Shown piece by piece: positions 929 through 56,899 of a DNA stretch of 64,000 bases (its first letter is position 1; every line of letters starts with the position of its first letter). Source of the stretch: a virus (Duplodnaviria; Caudoviricetes); the IMG/VR virus record IMGVR_UViG_3300002839_000006, positions 17,703-81,702 of that record; one strand, 5' to 3'. The notes under the pieces are model-generated. The model was given only the letters and a program-made list of their open reading frames with translations. It made no database searches and was not told where the DNA came from. The translations under genes and the position numbers were made by a program.

Positions 929-2887
929 TTAATATAAGAATGAGATAGTTACGACATCATAAGCATATACAGGAAGTGTAACTTGAACTGTTGCGCCACT
1001 TACAGTATAATTTGCAGGGTCAAGTGTTGAACCATTTAGGGAAACCCTTACGCCTGTTGCATCTTTTGGTGTATTTGAAAGCGTGTTTACTTGACCTGTT
1101 GAACCACTTGCAGCTTCTGCAAATTTCTGAGTTTTGAGATGGTCGTTGTAAAGTGTAGGTTTGTTTTGAATAAAAGTACCTCCCGAAGTTGCATTCCAAT
1201 CAATATAGGCTGCCGCTAAACCTGTTGATGTTCCAGTTAATGCACCTGTAAATCCAGTTGATGTAACAGAAGTTAGTCCTGCAATAGTTGTTGCTGTTGC
1301 ACCTAATGCAATATTAGTTGAACCAATAGTAAGACTTGAATTAGTTAACCTTGCATTTGCTAAAGTTCCTGTCCATCCAACTGTTATACTTGCTGCATTT
1401 AATAGCGAAGTTGAAGCCGAACCTCCTAAAGTTAAAGTTACATTTGTATCGTCTGTTTTTGTCAAGGCATTACCTGTAATTACTGCGGCAGGTATTCTCT
1501 CCCAAATAGTACCATTGTAACTTGCGTCATCACCTACATTAAAGGCTATTCCACCTGCACCAAAATTTGTAGTACCTGCTGTTGTACACCTATAAAACCA
1601 TCCTGCCGTTCCTGTGCCATTTGCAAGTGTCGGAGTGTTCGTATTTGCATTCCATGTTCCTTTATAAACTTGACTTGTTGCTACTGCCGCCCATGTTGCA
1701 ACCCCTGAACCGTTTGTTTTTAGAAAGTATCCATCTACTGCACCTGTTGTTATAGTGATTACAGGTGTACTAATTGAGCTCGAAGCATTAAACTGACTAG
1801 CTGCAACGGTTGATGAAAAGGTGGCAACAACTCCATAAAGCATACCAGTCAAAGCCTGACCACTACCTGCTGATAGGGGGAGATAACCACCACTTACAGC
1901 AGGAGCAGCACCAATATATGATAAAACCGCAGTAGAATTAAACCTATAAACAGTTCCATCGGCAGCTTCCCCTAATATTCCATCTGTTAATCCTGATGCT
2001 TGAAGTCCTGTGAAATTACCCGCTACACCCTGCCATTGACCTGAATTATCAGCAACTCCGTGCAAAGCAAGAGCCCCAATACTATTATATGAAATAGTCT
2101 TAGCTGCTGAACCATTAAAAGTACCACCACTTGCATCACCTGAACCTGAATTGTTAAAGGTTAGGGAATTAGGAGTGTTAAAAGCAGGTAAAGCAGCACT
2201 AGTCCAAGCTGAACCATCTGAAGTTAATACGTTGCCACTTGTCGAGGGTGTTACGGCTGCAATAAAATCAGTTGTTGCCGAATTTGCAGCACTACCAAAA
2301 GTTCTGTAATTTAGTTTTGTGGCTAAAGATGAAGTTAGTCTGTCCCTACGAACATACCCATCAGTGCCTATACTGTCAGATTTATCCTTTTTTGATAATG
2401 CTTTAAAGTTGGTGTAAAACCCATAACCCGCTGTACTATCATTGCTTAGCTTGTAGCTACCTGCTGCTTGTTTATTATTAAATGTAGTCCAGTCGGCAGC
2501 ACTTAAAGCACCTCTATTAGAAGCACTTGCAGTAGGTACTTGTAGGGTAATTACAGGTGTTGTAGTTCCCGTTGCTACTGTACTACTTAAATCTGTTCCT
2601 GTTGTACCTAAGGTTAAAGCAGCTACAGAAGTTACCGTACCACCACCATTAACTAAATCTATATACCCTGCTGCCAAAGCTGTAGTTATGGTATAAGAAG
2701 AAGTCAATGCAGTATTCACCCTCCATATTTTCTTAGTTGCTACATCATAAATTTCATTCCCTACCGAGAAGTTCTGATTTAGTGCAGTAGTAGCATTGGC
2801 TATTCTTACTGAGATAATAGGTGAAGTTTGAGCGTAAATGTTAACACTCAGTAAAACTGCTATTAAAAAACTTAGTATTTTTTTCAT
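929..2887 (-). CDS. Thr/Ala/Gly-rich fibre-like protein with signal peptide
   Basis: Signal MKKILSFLIAVLLSVNIYA|Q. Contains the YKGTWNANTNTPTL...GWFY...VGD...NG..W module typical of phage tail/baseplate fibres and a C-terminal small beta domain (VSLNG...YTVSG..V). Confidence 0.65.
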   Translation of the reverse strand: MKKILSFLIAVLLSVNIYAQTSPIISVRIANATTALNQNFSVGNEIYDVATKKIWRVNTALTSSYTITTALAAGYIDLVNGGGTVTSVAALTLGTTGTDLSSTVATGTTTPVITLQVPTASASNRGALSAADWTTFNNKQAAGSYKLSNDSTAGYGFYTNFKALSKKDKSDSIGTDGYVRRDRLTSSLATKLNYRTFGSAANSATTDFIAAVTPSTSGNVLTSDGSAWTSAALPAFNTPNSLTFNNSGSGDASGGTFNGSAAKTISYNSIGALALHGVADNSGQWQGVAGNFTGLQASGLTDGILGEAADGTVYRFNSTAVLSYIGAAPAVSGGYLPLSAGSGQALTGMLYGVVATFSSTVAASQFNASSSISTPVITITTGAVDGYFLKTNGSGVATWAAVATSQVYKGTWNANTNTPTLANGTGTAGWFYRCTTAGTTNFGAGGIAFNVGDDASYNGTIWERIPAAVITGNALTKTDDTNVTLTLGGSASTSLLNAASITVGWTGTLANARLTNSSLTIGSTNIALGATATTIAGLTSVTSTGFTGALTGTSTGLAAAYIDWNATSGGTFIQNKPTLYNDHLKTQKFAEAASGSTGQVNTLSNTPKDATGVRVSLNGSTLDPANYTVSGATVQVTLPVYAYDVVTISFLY

Positions 2888-2888
2888 C

Positions 2889-4292
2889 TTAGTTCTGTAT
2901 TTTTATTTTATCGTAAGTCCTTGTATCTGCCTGTAAGGTAATTGAGGTAGTGCCTACCCCTGACCAAATATCACTCGAAATTGAATTGCCATTGTAAAAA
3001 ACGTTGGAAATATCTGTGAGTGGAAATGGGATCATAAAAGTAGTCACCCCAGAAGTTGTGACTGAGATTTCATACATTATTGAATAGGCTGTGGTTTTTA
3101 CTCTCCCCCATTGAACTCCATTTGAGATAATCCAGTCACCTACCCCATAAGTTAGTCCTGATTGAGTTCCTGCCGTGTTTACAATATAGTACCAACCTTT
3201 AGTTGTGTCTGCGTTTGGGATAGAGGGTGTATTTGTAGCTGCATTGTAAACTCCTTGATATTTGACTGCACCTATTAAAGCTGCATTCATTTGAGATAGA
3301 GGTACTTTACCATTTACGAGTGAAGCCACACCGTTTAAAGCACCCCTGTCAGAAGTATTTATTTTGCTTAATGCCTTGAAATTGGTGTAAAAGCCTTTGT
3401 CTAACACACTATCGTTAGCTGCCTTATATAAAGTGCTATCTTTGCTTCCATCTGCCTTTAGAAACTCTGTATTTAAACCGTTTTCTGCTATGAAAGTTTT
3501 CCCTCTCACATTTCCTTTTAAATAGGTGTCAGTAGTCAAATCTGTACCTATGGTTGTCGTATTCGAACCATTACCTACTCCATATGTCCCTATCACTATT
3601 TCATTCTCAATACTATCAAGTTTGGCTCTTGTGAATGCCCCTATATAAATACAGTTGTTTAAATTTCTTGCCCCAGTAATTCCATCTGTTATATGACTCC
3701 CTGCTTCTTGTCCTACTGATGTATTATAATTCCCATTCTGGTTATGATACAGAGCTGAGTATCCATTGGCAGTATTACCATTGGCATACTTAGCTGATCT
3801 TAATGCATATGCTCCAGAGCCTGTATTATTTACTCCATATATAGTTATTGAATCCAGTGCAGCTGAACCAAGTGTTGTATTGTAGTTCAAGTCACTCTTC
3901 AAACCCATTGCCCCATTGAAGAAATATCCCTGCCCTGAATTAATAGAACCTGCAATGTTTATATTAGCATTCTGAGGTACTGTTTTTTGATTCCATATAT
4001 AGAAGGTTGAACCTGTTGCTGGAGCTTTACCTGCTACCATTGCATCAACCTGTGCTTTCTTATATACAAGTAACATCACTGAATCAATATTGTGTTTCAA
4101 CTTATCCATTGAAGCAAGATCAGTCCATTTATAGGTGACTCCTTTATATATCCATACAACTGAATCTAATGTGTTATAGCCAAATGAAGGGTTACTTATA
4201 GTCTTAAAAGTTGACCCTACTGGAGGATTCTTTTGTGAAAAAGAAAACGTTACTACCAATGATAGTAATAACGTTAAAAGTATTTTCTTCAT
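2889..4292 (-). CDS. Fibre-like protein with signal peptide and trimeric-adhesin-head-like repeats
   Basis: Signal MKKILLTLLLSLVVTFSFS|Q. NTxxGxxAL repeats (NTTLGSAAL, NTGSGAYAL, NTANGYSAL, NTSVGQEA), a YQGVYNAATNTP...VGDW module and a C-terminal VFYNG beta domain. Confidence 0.65.
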   Translation of the reverse strand: MKKILLTLLLSLVVTFSFSQKNPPVGSTFKTISNPSFGYNTLDSVVWIYKGVTYKWTDLASMDKLKHNIDSVMLLVYKKAQVDAMVAGKAPATGSTFYIWNQKTVPQNANINIAGSINSGQGYFFNGAMGLKSDLNYNTTLGSAALDSITIYGVNNTGSGAYALRSAKYANGNTANGYSALYHNQNGNYNTSVGQEAGSHITDGITGARNLNNCIYIGAFTRAKLDSIENEIVIGTYGVGNGSNTTTIGTDLTTDTYLKGNVRGKTFIAENGLNTEFLKADGSKDSTLYKAANDSVLDKGFYTNFKALSKINTSDRGALNGVASLVNGKVPLSQMNAALIGAVKYQGVYNAATNTPSIPNADTTKGWYYIVNTAGTQSGLTYGVGDWIISNGVQWGRVKTTAYSIMYEISVTTSGVTTFMIPFPLTDISNVFYNGNSISSDIWSGVGTTSITLQADTRTYDKIKIQN

Positions 4293-12320: not shown

Positions 12321-12358
12321 AAAATAAAGAAAGGGAACCAATCCTTGACTGATTCCCC
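12321..12358 (-). terminator. Rho-independent terminator after the tmRNA coding piece
   Basis: Minus strand GGGAATCAGT-CAAGG-ATTGGTTCCC followed by TTTCTTTATTTT. Confidence 0.8.
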
Positions 12359-12683
12359 ATTCCCGAATTTAAGCTACTGCTTTCAACTCTTGAAACATTG
12401 GTATTGTTTTGCCTTTTATGGCCTAGCAACTTCTTTTTGTTATCCTCTCATATGCAATCGAAAATTCTTTATGCCCCTAGTATTAATTAATATTTGAGGG
12501 AAACAATCGTTAGTTAATCTTCCCTCGATCATGGCAACTGATCTCGTGGAGCATCTGGGATTCAAACCCAGGTCTTGCATTTAAGCCAATAATCTCACTG
12601 CTAGTATTTTTAAATAACTTTAAGCAGATCCATCTTGGAAGCCTTTGCTTTCTCACTGTGTTGTGTGATACCTACTTAATGTG
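12333..12683 (-). ncRNA. ssrA: Circularly permuted (two-piece) tmRNA
   Basis: In transcript order the acceptor piece ends ...TGCAA-GAC-CTGGG TTTGAAT CCCAG-ATGCTCC-A (12579-12547). A 69-nt intervening segment follows, then the coding piece starting GGGGCAT (12477), which pairs with ATGCTCC including the G3:U70 Ala determinant. Tag ORF 12413-12369 reads GKTIPMFQELKAVA*. Outer limits are approximate. Confidence 0.85.
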
Positions 12684-12756
12684 TATAAGCAATAGGACTC
12701 GAACCTATGATCTCTACATCCCAAATGTAGCGGGTTACCAACTCCCCTATGCCTAT
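12684..12756 (-). tRNA. tRNA-Pro (TGG)
   Basis: Acceptor ATAGGCA/TGCTTAT, D arm GGGG-AGTTGGTA-ACCC, anticodon arm CTACA-TTTGGGA-TGTAG, T arm ATAGG-TTCGAGT-CCTAT; CCA not encoded. Confidence 0.9.
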
Positions 12757-12762
12757 ATTTGT

Positions 12763-12803
12763 AAATGGAGTAGCTGATTGCTATCGTTTGTTCTACTCCA
12801 TTT
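12763..12803. repeat. 11-bp perfect inverted repeat upstream of tRNA-Pro
   Basis: AAATGGAGTAG (12763-12773) / CTACTCCATTT (12793-12803), 19-nt loop. Confidence 0.75.
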
Positions 12804-52599: not shown

Positions 52600-55500
52600 T
52601 TATTTTAAGATTACTAATTCGCTGTTGTCCCAGAACTTGCATGCGTTCTCTTTCTTGTAGGTGTCGAGTTTGATCATCCCTGTGAGCAGTAGGATGTTGC
52701 CCTCCTGTCCTATCAGCTCGATGCCAGATTTTGTGAGCTGCTGATACTGGCAGGGAAATATAGACACCCAGATGAATGTGTAGTTGCTCTCAATCCTGAT
52801 CGAGCAGTATTTGCCACTCTTCTTGGATGTCCGCTCAATCACCTCTACTATGTAGCCGCCTATCGAGTAGTAGATGTTACTTAGCGACTCTGACTGCCAC
52901 TCATCCTGATCGAGATACTTTCCATCTGTCAGATACTTGTCGCACATAGTCTTGTAGTCGAAGAATGCTATGCCAGTCAGCCTCTTCTGCCTGAGGTCCC
53001 ACCACCAGTCATCGGAGATGTCCTTCTCGCTCAGCGTCATGAGATCCTTCTCGGCATCTATCTTAGTCTTCTTCTCAGTCCGGTAGAAGTCTATCAGTCG
53101 CTTGCGCTTGAGAGAGTCCTCTATCTCCTCGACCTTGTCGAATGCACCTGAGAATATGAGATTCTCTACATGAGTCTTGTTGACCTTGCTGCCCTTGAAA
53201 GTGTGCCTGCTCAGGAACTCCTCGAAGCTGAAATATGGTCCATTCTCATCCCTATCTTTCATGATCTGCTCAGCAGCAACTCCACCGACTGACTTGATGC
53301 TCGTGAGCGCCCAGTAGATGGTGTTCTTCTTGAAGTTCGAAGTCATATCGAACAGCGACTCATTGATGTCGGGTGGAGATATCTTTATGGCTCCAGTGGC
53401 ATGGATCTCAGATATGAAATCAGCTACCAATTCATCTTTAGCAAACTTGAATGCTGTGGTCCAGAATTCGATTGGGTGATTGACCTTAAACCACTGACTA
53501 ATATACCCAGTTATCGCATAGGCAGCCGCATGGCTGGCATTAAACCCGTAACCCGCAAACGCTTCTAGCTTATCCCAGATCTTTTCTGCAACACTTGCTT
53601 CGCATCCATTTGCTACAGCTCCCAAAACAAATTTATCATGATAGATATAGAACTGATCTCTAAACTGTTTCTTTCCCCTGCCAAGCATCACTTTTCTCAT
53701 CATGTCTGCCTCAACTAAAGTGAATCCGCCAAGTACCTGAGCAGCCCTCATTGTCTGTTCTTGGTAGATATATAGACCGTAAGTCTTTTTAGTCACACTT
53801 TCAAGCATATAGTCGTATTCAGGCTCTTTCATACCCCATTTAATCATCACAAAGTCATTGTGAGCATTAGATTTCATGGCGCCAGGACGATATAATGCAT
53901 TGGTTGCGCTGAGCTCTTCCATCGAATCAGGCTTCAATTCTTTAGTATATTTCTTCAGTCCCTGAGTCCCGAACTGGAACACATCAGAGTTCCACCCCTT
54001 TCCAAAGTACCTATATACAGCATCGTCATCTAATGGTATCTTCTTGAAGTCGATCTTTATCCCCTTGTTCTCCTCTATGAGCTTTATGCAGCTGGCGAAC
54101 TTATCCAATTGTTGAATACCTAATATATCTTCTTTTAAGAATCCTGCTTTGTCCAGCTGAATGCCCTCCCACTCGCTGACGAGCAGCTCCTCTCCATCTT
54201 TAGATAGGACCTTCTTGACTGGGAACCAGTGATAGATGTCCTTGTCTGCTGGAGTGATGATGGTGGCGCATGCATGGACTGATCCAGATCTAGGCTGCAT
54301 CAGACACAATTTAGCGTCGTGAACTATGTCTGGATTGCGCATCACAAAGTCCTTCAGTTTCTGAGACTTAGATGCAAGATGGAATATCTCAGACCAATCG
54401 GTGCCGTCCTTCTCTCCCTCTCCGAGTATGCTTGTCATCATCTTGACCTCCTGAATAGGAATGTTGCTACGTTTTGCAAGGTCTGTGAATATCATCTTCA
54501 GTTTCAGGTTGCCGTATGTCCCTACAGAGCACACCTGATCGTATCCGAATCTCTGCTCCATATAGTGCTTTACCTCATCCCTTCTCAGTCCCTCAAAGTC
54601 TGAGTCAATGTCAGGGATTGATTTCTTGACCCTATTCTCATTCAAGAACCTCTCGAACAGGAGGTCGTACTCGAATGGATCGATGTTGGTTATCCCCAAT
54701 AGGTATGCGATGAGACTTCCAGCAGATGATCCTCGGCCATATCCGACTAATATGTTCTGTTTGCCGCACCAGTCTATGATATCCCATAGGATGAGGAAGT
54801 AATCAATCAGATTCTGGCCCTTCATGATGACTGAATACTCTATCTCAATCCTGTCCAGATATTTCTCTCTGTCCTCGTCCGAGCATTTCTCATCCATCCC
54901 CTCGCCTATGAGGCCCCAGAATAGGTCTATCTTATCCTTATACTTCGTTAACTGCTCCTCTGTTAGTACATAGTCAGGCAGATAGAAGTGCTCTGTATCG
55001 ATCTGGAAGTTGCAGATCTCAGACAGTGTGTTGGCATTCTTGATGGCTTTTGATGCTATATCGTAGAACGACTCATCCTCTGTAGAGAATAACAGCTCTA
55101 ACTCTGCCAGATAGTCATCGGCGTCTTTGAAATACTGGTTGGATGACTCATACTCCCTGACTCCAGATATCCCATTCAGCGTCTTCTTTATGTGGCTGTG
55201 ATCCCTATCTAGGTAGAATGCATCGCATATGAATATCGGCTTCAGGCTGCCATCTCTGACAAACGCCTTTAGATTCAGAAGATACTCCTGATCTTTGGAC
55301 TGATCATTATATATGACAGTATCCAGCTGATAGTACTTCATGTAGCTCCTCATCCTGCCCAATTTATCATATGATCCACTCTTTGGATCTACGATCACTA
55401 TCACATCCTCCAAGAGCTCTATGAACCTATCCTCGTATATGAACTTGTTGTTGATGACATTGACCTCTTTGTTGATCATCAGTAGGTTGGTCCAGCCAGT

Positions 55501-56040
55501 CTCTGACTTTGCGAAGCACTTGATATCCTGCTTGTAATCTTCGCCCTTCCTGACGACAGTGTAAGTCGCTCCAAGTATCGGCTTGATATCGAGGTTCTTG
55601 CACTCAATCTGAAACTTGAGAGCTCCAGCCAATGTGTTCTTCTCTATGATGCCGAGAGATTTGACTCCCAAGAACTTTGCTTTAGCGCACCAGTCCTCAT
55701 AGATTCTAGAGCCATTGAGTATCTCATACGCCCCTCTGACTCCAAGAAAAGCATCAGTCTCTATCTCTCTCTTCGACTGGCCAATATATCTGAGCTCTTT
55801 GAATGTCGGTTTATCCTTGTCTGCTTTGTTTATGTAGTAGTAGTCCCCACCGAATCTAAATGCATAATTGTCGCAGTCTGTATCATCTGCTTGTAGATGC
55901 AGGTCATCATCGAATAGCCTGCCAGTGGAGTCTGGCCAGATGAACTCGAAAGTCTGATCTGCTATCTTGAACTTGCTCTTGATCTCGAGAGTCTCATAGT
56001 CCAGCTTGTTGTCCTCTAGATGTCTTATCAGTTTCTCCAT
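52600..56040 (-). CDS. dnaE: DNA polymerase III alpha subunit (phage DnaE)
   Basis: GRGSSAGSLIAYLLGIT..DP, FERFLN, PDIDSDF, K.DILG, GVFQF-like VFQFG, IYQEQ, YGFN.SHA.AY; start moved to MEKLIRH (56040). Confidence 0.95.
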   Translation of the reverse strand: MEKLIRHLEDNKLDYETLEIKSKFKIADQTFEFIWPDSTGRLFDDDLHLQADDTDCDNYAFRFGGDYYYINKADKDKPTFKELRYIGQSKREIETDAFLGVRGAYEILNGSRIYEDWCAKAKFLGVKSLGIIEKNTLAGALKFQIECKNLDIKPILGATYTVVRKGEDYKQDIKCFAKSETGWTNLLMINKEVNVINNKFIYEDRFIELLEDVIVIVDPKSGSYDKLGRMRSYMKYYQLDTVIYNDQSKDQEYLLNLKAFVRDGSLKPIFICDAFYLDRDHSHIKKTLNGISGVREYESSNQYFKDADDYLAELELLFSTEDESFYDIASKAIKNANTLSEICNFQIDTEHFYLPDYVLTEEQLTKYKDKIDLFWGLIGEGMDEKCSDEDREKYLDRIEIEYSVIMKGQNLIDYFLILWDIIDWCGKQNILVGYGRGSSAGSLIAYLLGITNIDPFEYDLLFERFLNENRVKKSIPDIDSDFEGLRRDEVKHYMEQRFGYDQVCSVGTYGNLKLKMIFTDLAKRSNIPIQEVKMMTSILGEGEKDGTDWSEIFHLASKSQKLKDFVMRNPDIVHDAKLCLMQPRSGSVHACATIITPADKDIYHWFPVKKVLSKDGEELLVSEWEGIQLDKAGFLKEDILGIQQLDKFASCIKLIEENKGIKIDFKKIPLDDDAVYRYFGKGWNSDVFQFGTQGLKKYTKELKPDSMEELSATNALYRPGAMKSNAHNDFVMIKWGMKEPEYDYMLESVTKKTYGLYIYQEQTMRAAQVLGGFTLVEADMMRKVMLGRGKKQFRDQFYIYHDKFVLGAVANGCEASVAEKIWDKLEAFAGYGFNASHAAAYAITGYISQWFKVNHPIEFWTTAFKFAKDELVADFISEIHATGAIKISPPDINESLFDMTSNFKKNTIYWALTSIKSVGGVAAEQIMKDRDENGPYFSFEEFLSRHTFKGSKVNKTHVENLIFSGAFDKVEEIEDSLKRKRLIDFYRTEKKTKIDAEKDLMTLSEKDISDDWWWDLRQKRLTGIAFFDYKTMCDKYLTDGKYLDQDEWQSESLSNIYYSIGGYIVEVIERTSKKSGKYCSIRIESNYTFIWVSIFPCQYQQLTKSGIELIGQEGNILLLTGMIKLDTYKKENACKFWDNSELVILK

Positions 56041-56041
56041 C

Positions 56042-56899
56042 CTATAGATATAGATGAAAGTTTCCAACAAATACTGCAACTCGATAATCATCAACGCCCT
56101 CAATAGCTTTTATGACTTCGAGAGACATGAGAGCGAATATCTCGCAGTCCATCTCCACTTTATCAATGTCCTGAGACCTCTGGTAGACTGTGGTGAATAG
56201 GATGTCGTCTTTGATCTGGAACTGAATAGATACTGTGCAGTTTGGCAATGGATCGCTCTGATCGAACTGAATGATCGCCTGTCGACTCGTATTGTCTCTC
56301 TCAAGTCGCTTTATGGCGTCTCTTAGAGCAGTTCTATACATGATCAACTTATCCTTCACATAGGGAAGTCTATCATCTGTGATGCGCCAGAATACGTTGG
56401 AGAAGAAATGATACGAGTGGTTCAGTATCTCTTTGACTCTACAACCAACAGTGACTCTCTCGACTCCGCATAATTCTAGATACTTTCTCATTCCCTCTAC
56501 GAACACATCTCCCGTCTCAATCTTTGAGAGATAGGATGAGATCTCTTTGTCTTCTGGCTTGACATCATTATTCCTGCATATGAAGACATCTGCTGATTCG
56601 CAAGCATAGCTCCCTAGTCCAGGATACCCTATGACTGAGTCCTTCATAACATCTACATCTTCAGTGAAAGATGCTACGAAAGCTTTTATTCTCTTTGCCT
56701 TCACATTCTGCATCCCCAAACTCTCAATCTCTCCTGCCAGAGTATTCTCATCTATGTCCCTTAAGTCATTGAGAGTAGGAAACGTCCTGAAGAACTCTCT
56801 CATCATCTTCTTGACTTGCACTCCAGTAGTCTGGTTGAGCAGGATGCAGCAGACGAGCATCTTCCATGGCTCGCGCCTGTATATGTCTTGTATCATCAT
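56042..56899 (-). CDS. Fusion of an MBD4-like HhH-GPD glycosylase (N) and a compact thymidylate-synthase-like domain (C)
   Basis: N: PWKMLVCCILLNQT...FP...LG....KAK.I...PGLG.YA..S..F...PED. C: SRQAII...PNCT...QFQI...VYQRSQD...D...GNFHLY. Confidence 0.8.
   Translation of the reverse strand: MMIQDIYRREPWKMLVCCILLNQTTGVQVKKMMREFFRTFPTLNDLRDIDENTLAGEIESLGMQNVKAKRIKAFVASFTEDVDVMKDSVIGYPGLGSYACESADVFICRNNDVKPEDKEISSYLSKIETGDVFVEGMRKYLELCGVERVTVGCRVKEILNHSYHFFSNVFWRITDDRLPYVKDKLIMYRTALRDAIKRLERDNTSRQAIIQFDQSDPLPNCTVSIQFQIKDDILFTTVYQRSQDIDKVEMDCEIFALMSLEVIKAIEGVDDYRVAVFVGNFHLYL

Follow-up and report, generated by a model that had tools for sequence, protein, structure and literature searches.

Two-piece tmRNAs, the products of circularly permuted ssrA genes, are textbook knowledge for three bacterial lineages and are also known in marine phages. 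The locus described here raises the question of whether a phage gene of much more compact design encodes such an RNA, whether this RNA is likely to work, and where the gene may have come from. The stretch of DNA that was analysed, referred to as the window throughout, comprises 64,000 nt (positions 17,703-81,702) of IMG/VR record IMGVR_UViG_3300002839_000006; coordinates given below without an accession or contig name refer to this stretch. Judged from its sequence, the minus-strand segment 12626-12322 is a circularly permuted (two-piece) tmRNA gene, and very probably a working circularly permuted ssrA. By the same kind of evidence, it is the most divergent member seen of a small family of pseudoknot-free phage tmRNAs. 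The family is already partly annotated: the gene of phage MA9V-3 is labelled in GenBank, and crAss-like examples appear in a published supplementary table.

Detection of a permuted tmRNA gene

The original prediction of a circularly permuted tmRNA was made from the letters alone and named ARAGORN and covariance models as ways to check it. Run with default settings, ARAGORN finds no tmRNA at the locus, but version 1.2.41 with thresholds at 95% (-ps) returns a single permuted tmRNA, whose domains are the same and whose tag is GKTIPMFQELKAVA. Setting the thresholds at 60% produces a spurious second call, absent at 95%. The outcome with covariance models was similarly divided. The permuted tmRNA model RF04321 (tmRNA_permuted) aligns end to end over 12594-12369, finishing on the UAA stop codon, but its score of 25.4 bits lies below the gathering cut-off of 47; no tmRNA family reaches its Rfam gathering cut-off at this locus. 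The E-value of the RF04321 match is 0.0036 for a 701-nt search and 9.8e-5 for the whole 81.7-kb record. The alpha, beta and cyano models (RF01849, RF01850 and RF01851) give no match in the 701-nt search of the window locus at E up to 10, and in a search by E-value threshold no Rfam family besides the permuted-tmRNA model fits the candidate.

A covariance model, R1, was built from seven sequences representing five other lineages, with the window copy excluded. Apart from the acceptor stem and the T arm, the only structure supplied to the model was five pairs in the inner P2 helix. R1 matches 12626-12400 at 68.9 bits (E 1e-12), the runner-up in the 64 kb scoring 11 bits. RF04321, ARAGORN at relaxed thresholds and R1 all agree on a permuted tmRNA, and they concur on its boundaries and tag. 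Neither ARAGORN nor Rfam calls a tRNA over the candidate, which is therefore not an ordinary tRNA, as had been claimed.

The other family members that were tested (see below) score 50-69 bits with RF04321, above the cut-off, the window copy being the lowest. With the beta_tmRNA model, the relatives give only partial matches (27-43 bits; cut-off 84). R1 also assigns 35-73 bits to alpha-like tmRNAs, that is, scores as high as that of the window copy. Since the model fails to separate the Gly-tag family from alpha-like tmRNAs, assignment to the family rests on shared traits and not on score. As the window copy shows, default ARAGORN settings and Rfam cut-offs miss divergent members.

Anatomy of the locus

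All features described in this section lie on the minus strand. They follow one another in the permuted order: T arm and 3′ acceptor strand, spacer, 5′ acceptor strand, P2 and tag. Each of the elements originally claimed (T arm, acceptor strands, spacer, helices, ATAAAA and terminator) was found where it had been placed.

Directly upstream of the tmRNA gene is a gene for tRNA-Pro(UGG) (12683-12756), identified by ARAGORN and by Rfam model RF00005 (65.6 bits). No promoter could be recognised between the two genes. A search upstream of the tmRNA gene for sigma-70-type and Bacteroidota-type (TAnnTTTG) promoters returned none, the TAnnTTTG sequence not being enriched in the window. The tRNA and the tmRNA may be co-transcribed, in which case the acceptor piece would owe its 5′ end to 3′ processing of the tRNA. 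Ending 11 nt before tRNA-Pro is a hairpin of 33 nt (GGAGTAG...CTACTCC) with ATTT after it (12757-12800), which could represent either the terminator of the upstream gene or a processing signal of the tRNA-tmRNA unit.

From its putative 5′ end, the acceptor piece begins with a domain (12605-12682) predicted to form a self-contained branched hairpin (about 12620-12680). The motif at its start, TTAAGTAGG, is common to the relative L035. No significant complementarity or pairing was found between this domain and the 3′ tail of the coding piece. It is followed by the acceptor-piece strand of the P2 rod (12575-12604) which, in duplex and cofold predictions, contributes CTAGCA (12604-12599) to an outer helix, intervening segments to middle helices and ATGCAA (12580-12575) to an inner helix. 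The 3′ half of the tRNA-like domain (12547-12574), defined by the RF04321 and R1 alignments, comprises the sequence GAC, the T arm (12571-12555), the acceptor 3′ strand ATGCTCC (12554-12548) and the discriminator A at 12547. In the T arm, a stem of 5 bp (CTGGG, 12571-12567, with CCCAG, 12559-12555) closes the 7-nt loop UUUGAAU (TTTGAAT, 12566-12560), which has U in place of C at its third position. The discriminator is followed by CGA, hence CCA is not encoded.

The intervening spacer (69 nt; 12546-12478) contains two hairpins and would be expected to be removed during maturation of the two pieces. Spacers in the relatives measure 60-71 nt and are unrelated in sequence. On the other side of the spacer, the 5′ half of the tRNA-like domain (12458-12477) carries the acceptor strand GGGGCAU (12477-12471), a D-loop analogue, AAAGAAUU, and the conserved UUCGA; the succession of GGGGCAU, 8 nt and UUCGA has the consensus spacing of the RF04321 and R1 alignments. 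The acceptor stem is 7 bp long and includes G3:U70 (G12475 with U12550). All 12 pairs of the acceptor and T stems are canonical. The alanine identity features, G3:U70 and discriminator A73, are both present, and the G:U pair is invariant in 11 of 11 family sequences.

The coding-piece strand of the P2 rod (38 nt; 12420-12457) stands at the place that PK1 occupies in other tmRNAs and extends from UUGCAU (12457-12452), the partner of ATGCAA in the inner helix, to UGCUAG (12428-12423), the partner of CTAGCA in the outer one. The resume context and tag frame occupy 12369-12419. AUAAAA (12419-12414) precedes a frame (GGC...GCU UAA, 12413-12369) of 14 codons plus TAA that encodes GKTIPMFQELKAVA. The frame is intact, its context is A-rich and the end of the tag is hydrophobic. 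The tag ends in AVA instead of the usual AA; VA endings are also found in L126, L053 and several alpha-like phage tmRNAs. The coding piece ends with an intrinsic terminator (12322-12358), a 12-bp hairpin (12358-12332) followed by a U run, which also appears in the folds.

Folding and covariation

When the 358-nt precursor is folded without constraints, the T arm and the inner P2 helix appear, as does the acceptor stem with the two spacer hairpins inside it; in the centroid structure, CTAGCA is paired with TGCTAG as well. The fold has a z-score of -3.2, and none of 100 shuffled sequences folds equally well.

A model-based alignment of 11 distinct sequences has 98.9% of its cells paired and shows changes on both sides in 9 of 17 pairs, figures to be read with the bias of an alignment fitted to the structure. 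None of 500 shuffles reaches any of the measures, and partners slid out of register pair at about 50%. The slid controls and the raw helices argue that the covariation signal is real. Compensatory changes in the window copy itself affect acceptor pairs 5-7, T-stem pairs 1-2 and the inner P2 helix. MAFFT combined with RNAalifold alone yielded only the T arm and the acceptor stem and shifted the window sequence by one column, which the model-based alignment corrected.

The outer P2 helix provides a further case. All six lineages have a 6-bp helix at the equivalent position, one strand being 23-27 nt upstream of the (G/A)GAC in front of the T arm and the other 23-29 nt downstream of UUCGA; its sequence differs from lineage to lineage: CTAGCA/TGCTAG in the window, and ATATAC/GTATAT, TTCGTC/GACGAA, TTGTAT/GTGCAG, ATGTTT/AAACAT and ATTGAC/GTCAAT in the others. 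Pairing between the upstream and downstream strands averages -18.4 kcal/mol for cognate partners against -12.2 kcal/mol for 30 non-cognate combinations. For the window, the cognate P2 duplex has -17.4 kcal/mol and the best non-cognate one -13.3 kcal/mol, with 7 of 500 shuffles doing as well. The two helices by which the pieces had been predicted to pair correspond to the inner and outer helices of this rod, which covary in the six lineages. Covariation in homologues, on which the prediction had been made to depend, extends to the T arm, the acceptor stem and both P2 helices.

In a set of 47 distinct tRNA-like domains, a U at the C56 position of the T loop is always accompanied by GA, without GG, in the D-loop analogue (4 of 4 U56 lineages), whereas domains with C56 have GG in 42 cases and GA in one. 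From these sequences, the G19:C56 tertiary pair looks like having been switched to A:U in the U56 lineages. The matching of U56 by a D-loop GA fits a tertiary pair that has been kept, and speaks against simple decay of the window copy.

Relatives of the window copy

A search with RF04321 of the whole records of portal relatives revealed a permuted tmRNA in phage MA9V-3 (64.7 bits). The gene (PV245944.1, 22766-23124) carries the GenBank label "transfer-messenger RNA SsrA" and specifies the tag GNVIDINKYVAKLEVAA. Further members were found by pattern scans on the shared anatomy. The family extends to MA9V-3, the crAss-like phage cr53_1 plus about 15 IMG/VR contigs, and four further uncultured lineages. 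The tag is GKTISISNAPVRQAA in L035 and L045 (IMG/VR) and in the metagenome contig L125, GNTQSLRMVA in L126, GNNYQMKAAA in L134 and L141, and GNTSYV[MT]DYT[GS]IAA in the crAss-like group that includes RefSeq cr53_1. The cr53_1 tmRNA (NC_055889.1, about 93.1-93.3 kb) has no annotation and was detected only by ARAGORN -ps. Other crAss-like phages, among them cr10_1, cr50_1 and cr114_1, are listed as "Permuted" in Table S1 of the Melnitz paper (PMC9004378).

In a further IMG/VR contig (L053:8861-9073), the tag read by eye, GKVV...RDVA, corresponds to GKVVAFGQPQLRDVA and lies at the conserved distance after UUUCGA. ARAGORN reports this tag as APIKLFLDLG, unlike the frame read here; automatic tag calls in the family can err. 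The complete 96-kb phage behind L045 has a GKTI tag and no homologue of the window's portal protein, from which it follows that the tmRNA gene sits in unrelated phages. The crAss-like contig L131 also carries a Hatchet ribozyme (1312-1460, 86.5 bits) and a RAGATH-9 RNA (2886-3047, 137 bits), 1.5-3 kb upstream of its permuted tmRNA.

A compact RNA predicted to lack pseudoknots

We refer to these genes as compact Gly-tag permuted tmRNAs of Bacteroidota phages, a grouping made here and not a curated family. In its eight distinct sequences, the resume codon lies 59-64 nt from G1, CCA is not encoded, the tag starts with Gly and a terminator comes directly after the tag. The same scans yielded 64 other distinct phage two-piece tmRNAs, which have the resume codon at 82 nt or more (median 85), CCA encoded in 63 of the 64, and tags mostly starting with Ala. 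In 94 Bacteroidota one-piece tmRNAs, selected for Gly-start tags, the resume codon is at about 95 nt and CCA is mostly not encoded. The window copy shows the traits of the grouping: an offset of 64 nt, CGA after the discriminator, GGC as resume codon and a terminator after the tag.

The distance from UUUCGA to AUAAA is exactly 38 nt in four lineages; L134 and the crAss-like group have 35-36 nt. According to duplex prediction, this stretch forms a long, interrupted rod with the acceptor piece in every lineage. In the window, there are 44 nt between UUCGA and the resume codon, the majority of them paired in P2. With so short a stretch taken up by the rod, there is no room for PK1. The original prediction of a compact RNA without PK1 thus agrees with a resume codon 64 nt from G1 and with 38 nt between UUCGA and AUAAAA that are largely used by the rod. 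The stop codon is followed by 10 nt and then the terminator, hence PK2 is absent too. The window tmRNA is predicted to be free of any pseudoknot, the P2 rod running straight to the resume codon. In E. coli, tagging survives replacement of PK1 by a hairpin (PMC3968760), which makes a pseudoknot-free tmRNA credible. In a phage lineage tied to Bacteroidota, an RNA stripped of every pseudoknot would be a natural experiment on which parts of tmRNA can be dispensed with. At approximately 290 nt in two pieces, the design would be the smallest natural one among tag-encoding tmRNAs to our knowledge.

Phage one-piece tmRNAs of just 225 nt, whose tags read GNSQNAFALAA and GNTQATFALAA, are found at positions 1071-1297 of IMG/VR contig L122 and at the matching sites in L123 and L124. 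At the 5′ end they have the layout of the permuted RNAs (GGGG, 8 nt, TTTCGA, 38 nt, ATAAAC, GGC), and they lack an encoded CCA. These RNAs may be unpermuted relatives of the family that are poor in pseudoknots.

The phage and its neighbourhood

The gene had been ascribed to a phage, and the virus record (81.7 kb, estimated to be 74% complete) does hold the corresponding genes: the neighbours, all on the minus strand, encode the portal, tail proteins, a metallophosphoesterase and ribonucleotide reductase. By portal protein, the nearest relatives are a human-faecal phage contig (47%), Chryseobacterium phage MA9V-3 (34.6%) and Bacteroides DAC phages (34%), with SPO1-like phages of Bacillota next. 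Because the portal neighbours are phages of Chryseobacterium and Bacteroides, the host is probably a member of the Bacteroidota.

Neither SmpB (PF01668) nor an integrase is present in the 81.7-kb record at its estimated completeness. A blastn search with the locus and 12 kb around it found no match in 50,697 phage records, and the downstream neighbour, a protein of 344 aa, has no relatives in IMG/VR. In six phage contigs with a related phosphoesterase, no tRNA or tmRNA lies within 3 kb of that gene, and RF04321 found nothing in five whole records of such contigs. Within the window, the segment 52000-60000 has a G+C content of 45-47% compared to about 33% elsewhere; this block holds a 1167-aa ORF (52600-56103) and its neighbours.

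A search of IMG/VR with the exact T-arm motif of the window turned up solely tRNA-Ala genes and one orphan fragment. The latter (L006:517-580, in a 33.9-kb IMG/VR contig) consists of a T arm plus an acceptor strand with CCA at its end; two terminators come after it. There, ARAGORN recognises neither a tRNA nor a tmRNA, and RF00023 scores just 15 bits. The fragment may be an attachment-site remnant or a very divergent tmRNA. Among large uncultured phages, ROOL RNAs (150-153 bits) were seen within tRNA arrays at L005:1566-2177 and L007:9306-9917, and partial OLE-like matches (103-106 bits; model positions 439-592) at L002:4169-4320, L004:4198-4349 and L007:614-765. The phages bearing these RNAs have the window's T-arm motif in tRNA-Ala, and the same loci give weak one-piece tmRNA matches of 25-27 bits.

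Origin of the family

A 24-nt motif spanning the inner P2 strand and the T arm is common to MA9V-3, L126 and L134. It was matched in at least 120 species genomes; among the 80 genomes listed with it, 77 bear Bacteroidota names. In 110 of the at least 120 genomes, the match falls in a standard tmRNA of about 397 nt, mostly without encoded CCA and with tags such as GENNYALAA, GNTQYAMAA and GNTSYAMAA. A Bacteroidota ancestry of the family is suggested by the Gly resume codon, GNT-type tags, the sequence UUUGAC in cr53_1 and L134, the missing CCA and the host phylum.

Identity over the tRNA-like domain separates Bacteroidota and alpha-like sets weakly, and the window and L035 not at all. The median identity of the window domain is 0.61 to both sets, the Bacteroidota set having been chosen by the family motif and being biased for this reason. 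In view of this weak separation, and of R1 scoring alpha-like tmRNAs equally, an independent origin is treated as plausible only. That the permutation arose independently of the alpha, beta and cyano ones appears about as probable as that it did not.

The statement, made with the prediction, that Bacteroidota typically carry the one-piece form is matched by counts of 24,380 standard versus 48 permuted genes (PMC11915505, Table S2). The tmRNA database of 2025, which counts these 48 genes in Bacteroidota assemblies, also counts 79 phage sequences (PMC11915505). Phage two-piece tmRNAs have already been published (PMC9004378); a literature search found no paper describing a Bacteroidota-linked, pseudoknot-free two-piece lineage.

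Proposed function and alternative explanations

From the anatomy, homology and covariation described above, we infer how the RNA would be processed, charged and used for tagging, and how the phage would benefit. Following the known two-piece pathway, a single transcript, possibly beginning at the upstream tRNA-Pro, would be cut by host RNase P on the 5′ side of G12477 and by a tRNA 3′-end enzyme after A12547, with the host CCA-adding enzyme supplying CCA. The products would be two pieces, the acceptor piece measuring about 139 nt and the coding piece about 153 nt, joined by the 7-bp acceptor stem and the interrupted P2 rod. The host AlaRS would charge the RNA by way of G3:U70 and A73. With EF-Tu and SmpB, both presumably from the host, it would enter ribosomes stalled on broken mRNAs, and translation would switch to the GGC-start frame, appending (A)GKTIPMFQELKAVA. 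A likely gain for the phage would be that ribosomes stay available at a time when nucleases of host and phage are generating non-stop mRNAs. The AVA ending, replacing LAA, may alter the fate of the tagged proteins.

The window copy has atypical residues: AGAC for GGAC, UUCGAU for UUCGAC or UUUGAC, the U56 T loop and the AVA tag end. These oddities at conserved sites, together with the lowest RF04321 score of the family (25.4 against 50-69 bits), could be taken to indicate a decayed or repurposed copy, transcribed but not tagging, that might act as a decoy tying up host SmpB or AlaRS and so damp trans-translation. There is a parallel in phage DS6A, a tmRNA fragment of which, devoid of coding frame, is reported to inhibit the host tmRNA, according to a citation in PMC11915505. 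However, all helices are intact and the changes specific to the window are compensated, including U56, which is matched in the D-loop analogue. The 14-codon frame, the stop codon and the resume context are intact as well, and the VA ending recurs in L126, L053 and alpha-like phage tmRNAs. We regard loss of tagging as unlikely.

Far less probable is that the locus represents the 3′ fragment of a tRNA-Ala or tmRNA gene, for instance an attachment site, with GGGGCAT and the frame present by chance. In favour of this explanation, other phages have the T-arm and acceptor motif in identical form in their tRNA-Ala genes, as does the orphan fragment of L006; the explanation is nonetheless close to excluded: the record lacks an integrase, the precursor folds with a z-score of -3.2, and the remaining elements (5′ strand, UUCGA spacing, two nested P2 helices, resume context, tag and terminator) stand in register, with an R1 E-value of 1e-12. 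It is just as hard to believe that the transcript is some other tRNA-like RNA (a Y-RNA-like or split-tRNA module) devoid of messenger function, since the permuted-tmRNA model is the only Rfam model to match and the relatives have the tag frame and its context in common.

Besides the preferred reading of the window gene as a working permuted ssrA, a broader one can be offered tentatively, with somewhat less than even confidence. The Gly-tag family would represent a fourth, independent ssrA permutation, derived from the Bacteroidota one-piece gene or from a pseudoknot-poor one-piece phage derivative of the L122-L124 kind. Its RNAs would function without pseudoknots, and the phage tags (AVA in this case) would give rescued proteins a fate unlike that conferred by the host ALAA tag. 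The family is represented among the crAss-like phages, for which the highest abundance of any phage family in the human gut has been reported (PMC6235969). In view of this, one may ask why lytic phages should carry a ribosome-rescue RNA and a tag of their own.

Comparison with known tmRNAs

The two-piece tmRNAs of Alphaproteobacteria, of a betaproteobacterial group and of Cyanobacteria, and those of marine phages such as Melnitz, resemble the window RNA in being permuted, in consisting of an acceptor and a coding piece and in having the same tRNA-like domain (RF01849-RF01851, RF04321; PMC3985003, PMC9004378). For these two-piece RNAs and the window RNA alike, maturation by RNase P and tRNA 3′-end enzymes is presumed. 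In contrast to the window RNA, two-piece tmRNAs known to date typically retain both PK1 and PK2 (PMC3985003). The one-piece tmRNA of Bacteroidota (RF00023, about 397 nt) shares with the window the Gly resume codon and the lack of an encoded CCA, but it is a single piece with four pseudoknots, and about 95 nt lie between its 5′ end and the resume codon. The tRNA-like domain of the window is no closer to this RNA than to alpha-like phage tmRNAs.

Within the family, cr53_1 and the crAss-like group resemble the window in architecture, in the combination of a U56 T loop with GA in the D-loop analogue and in not encoding CCA. Their resume codon is 60 nt from the 5′ end and the tag, GNTSYVMDYTGIAA, starts with Gly. 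Unlike the window, cr53_1 has UUUGAC, as in Bacteroidota one-piece tmRNAs, and a strong 5′ hairpin, and belongs to another phage order (Crassvirales). The L035, L045 and L125 genes resemble the window in their tags, which start with GKTI (the first 11 nt of the frame being identical in L035), in the 38-nt geometry and in the motif TTAAGTAGG at the start of the acceptor piece. L053 also has a tag starting with GK, ending in DVA where the window has AVA. Outside the conserved cores, these GK-tag relatives cannot be aligned with the window.

MA9V-3 is the nearest cultured relative of the window by portal protein (34.6% identity). The two tmRNAs differ in their detection, MA9V-3 scoring 64.7 bits with RF04321 (25.4 bits for the window) and being found by default ARAGORN, which misses the window copy. 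They also differ in the tRNA-like domain, which in MA9V-3 has a Bacteroidota-type GGAC, the T loop UUCGAUC and the acceptor strand GGGGGUG, and in the tag (GNVIDINKYVAKLEVAA in MA9V-3). The two genes have in common the order of their parts, a spacer of 60-69 nt, the lack of an encoded CCA, 38 nt from UUUCGA to AUAAA with no room for PK1, a Gly resume codon and a tag of 14-17 residues with the terminator directly after it.
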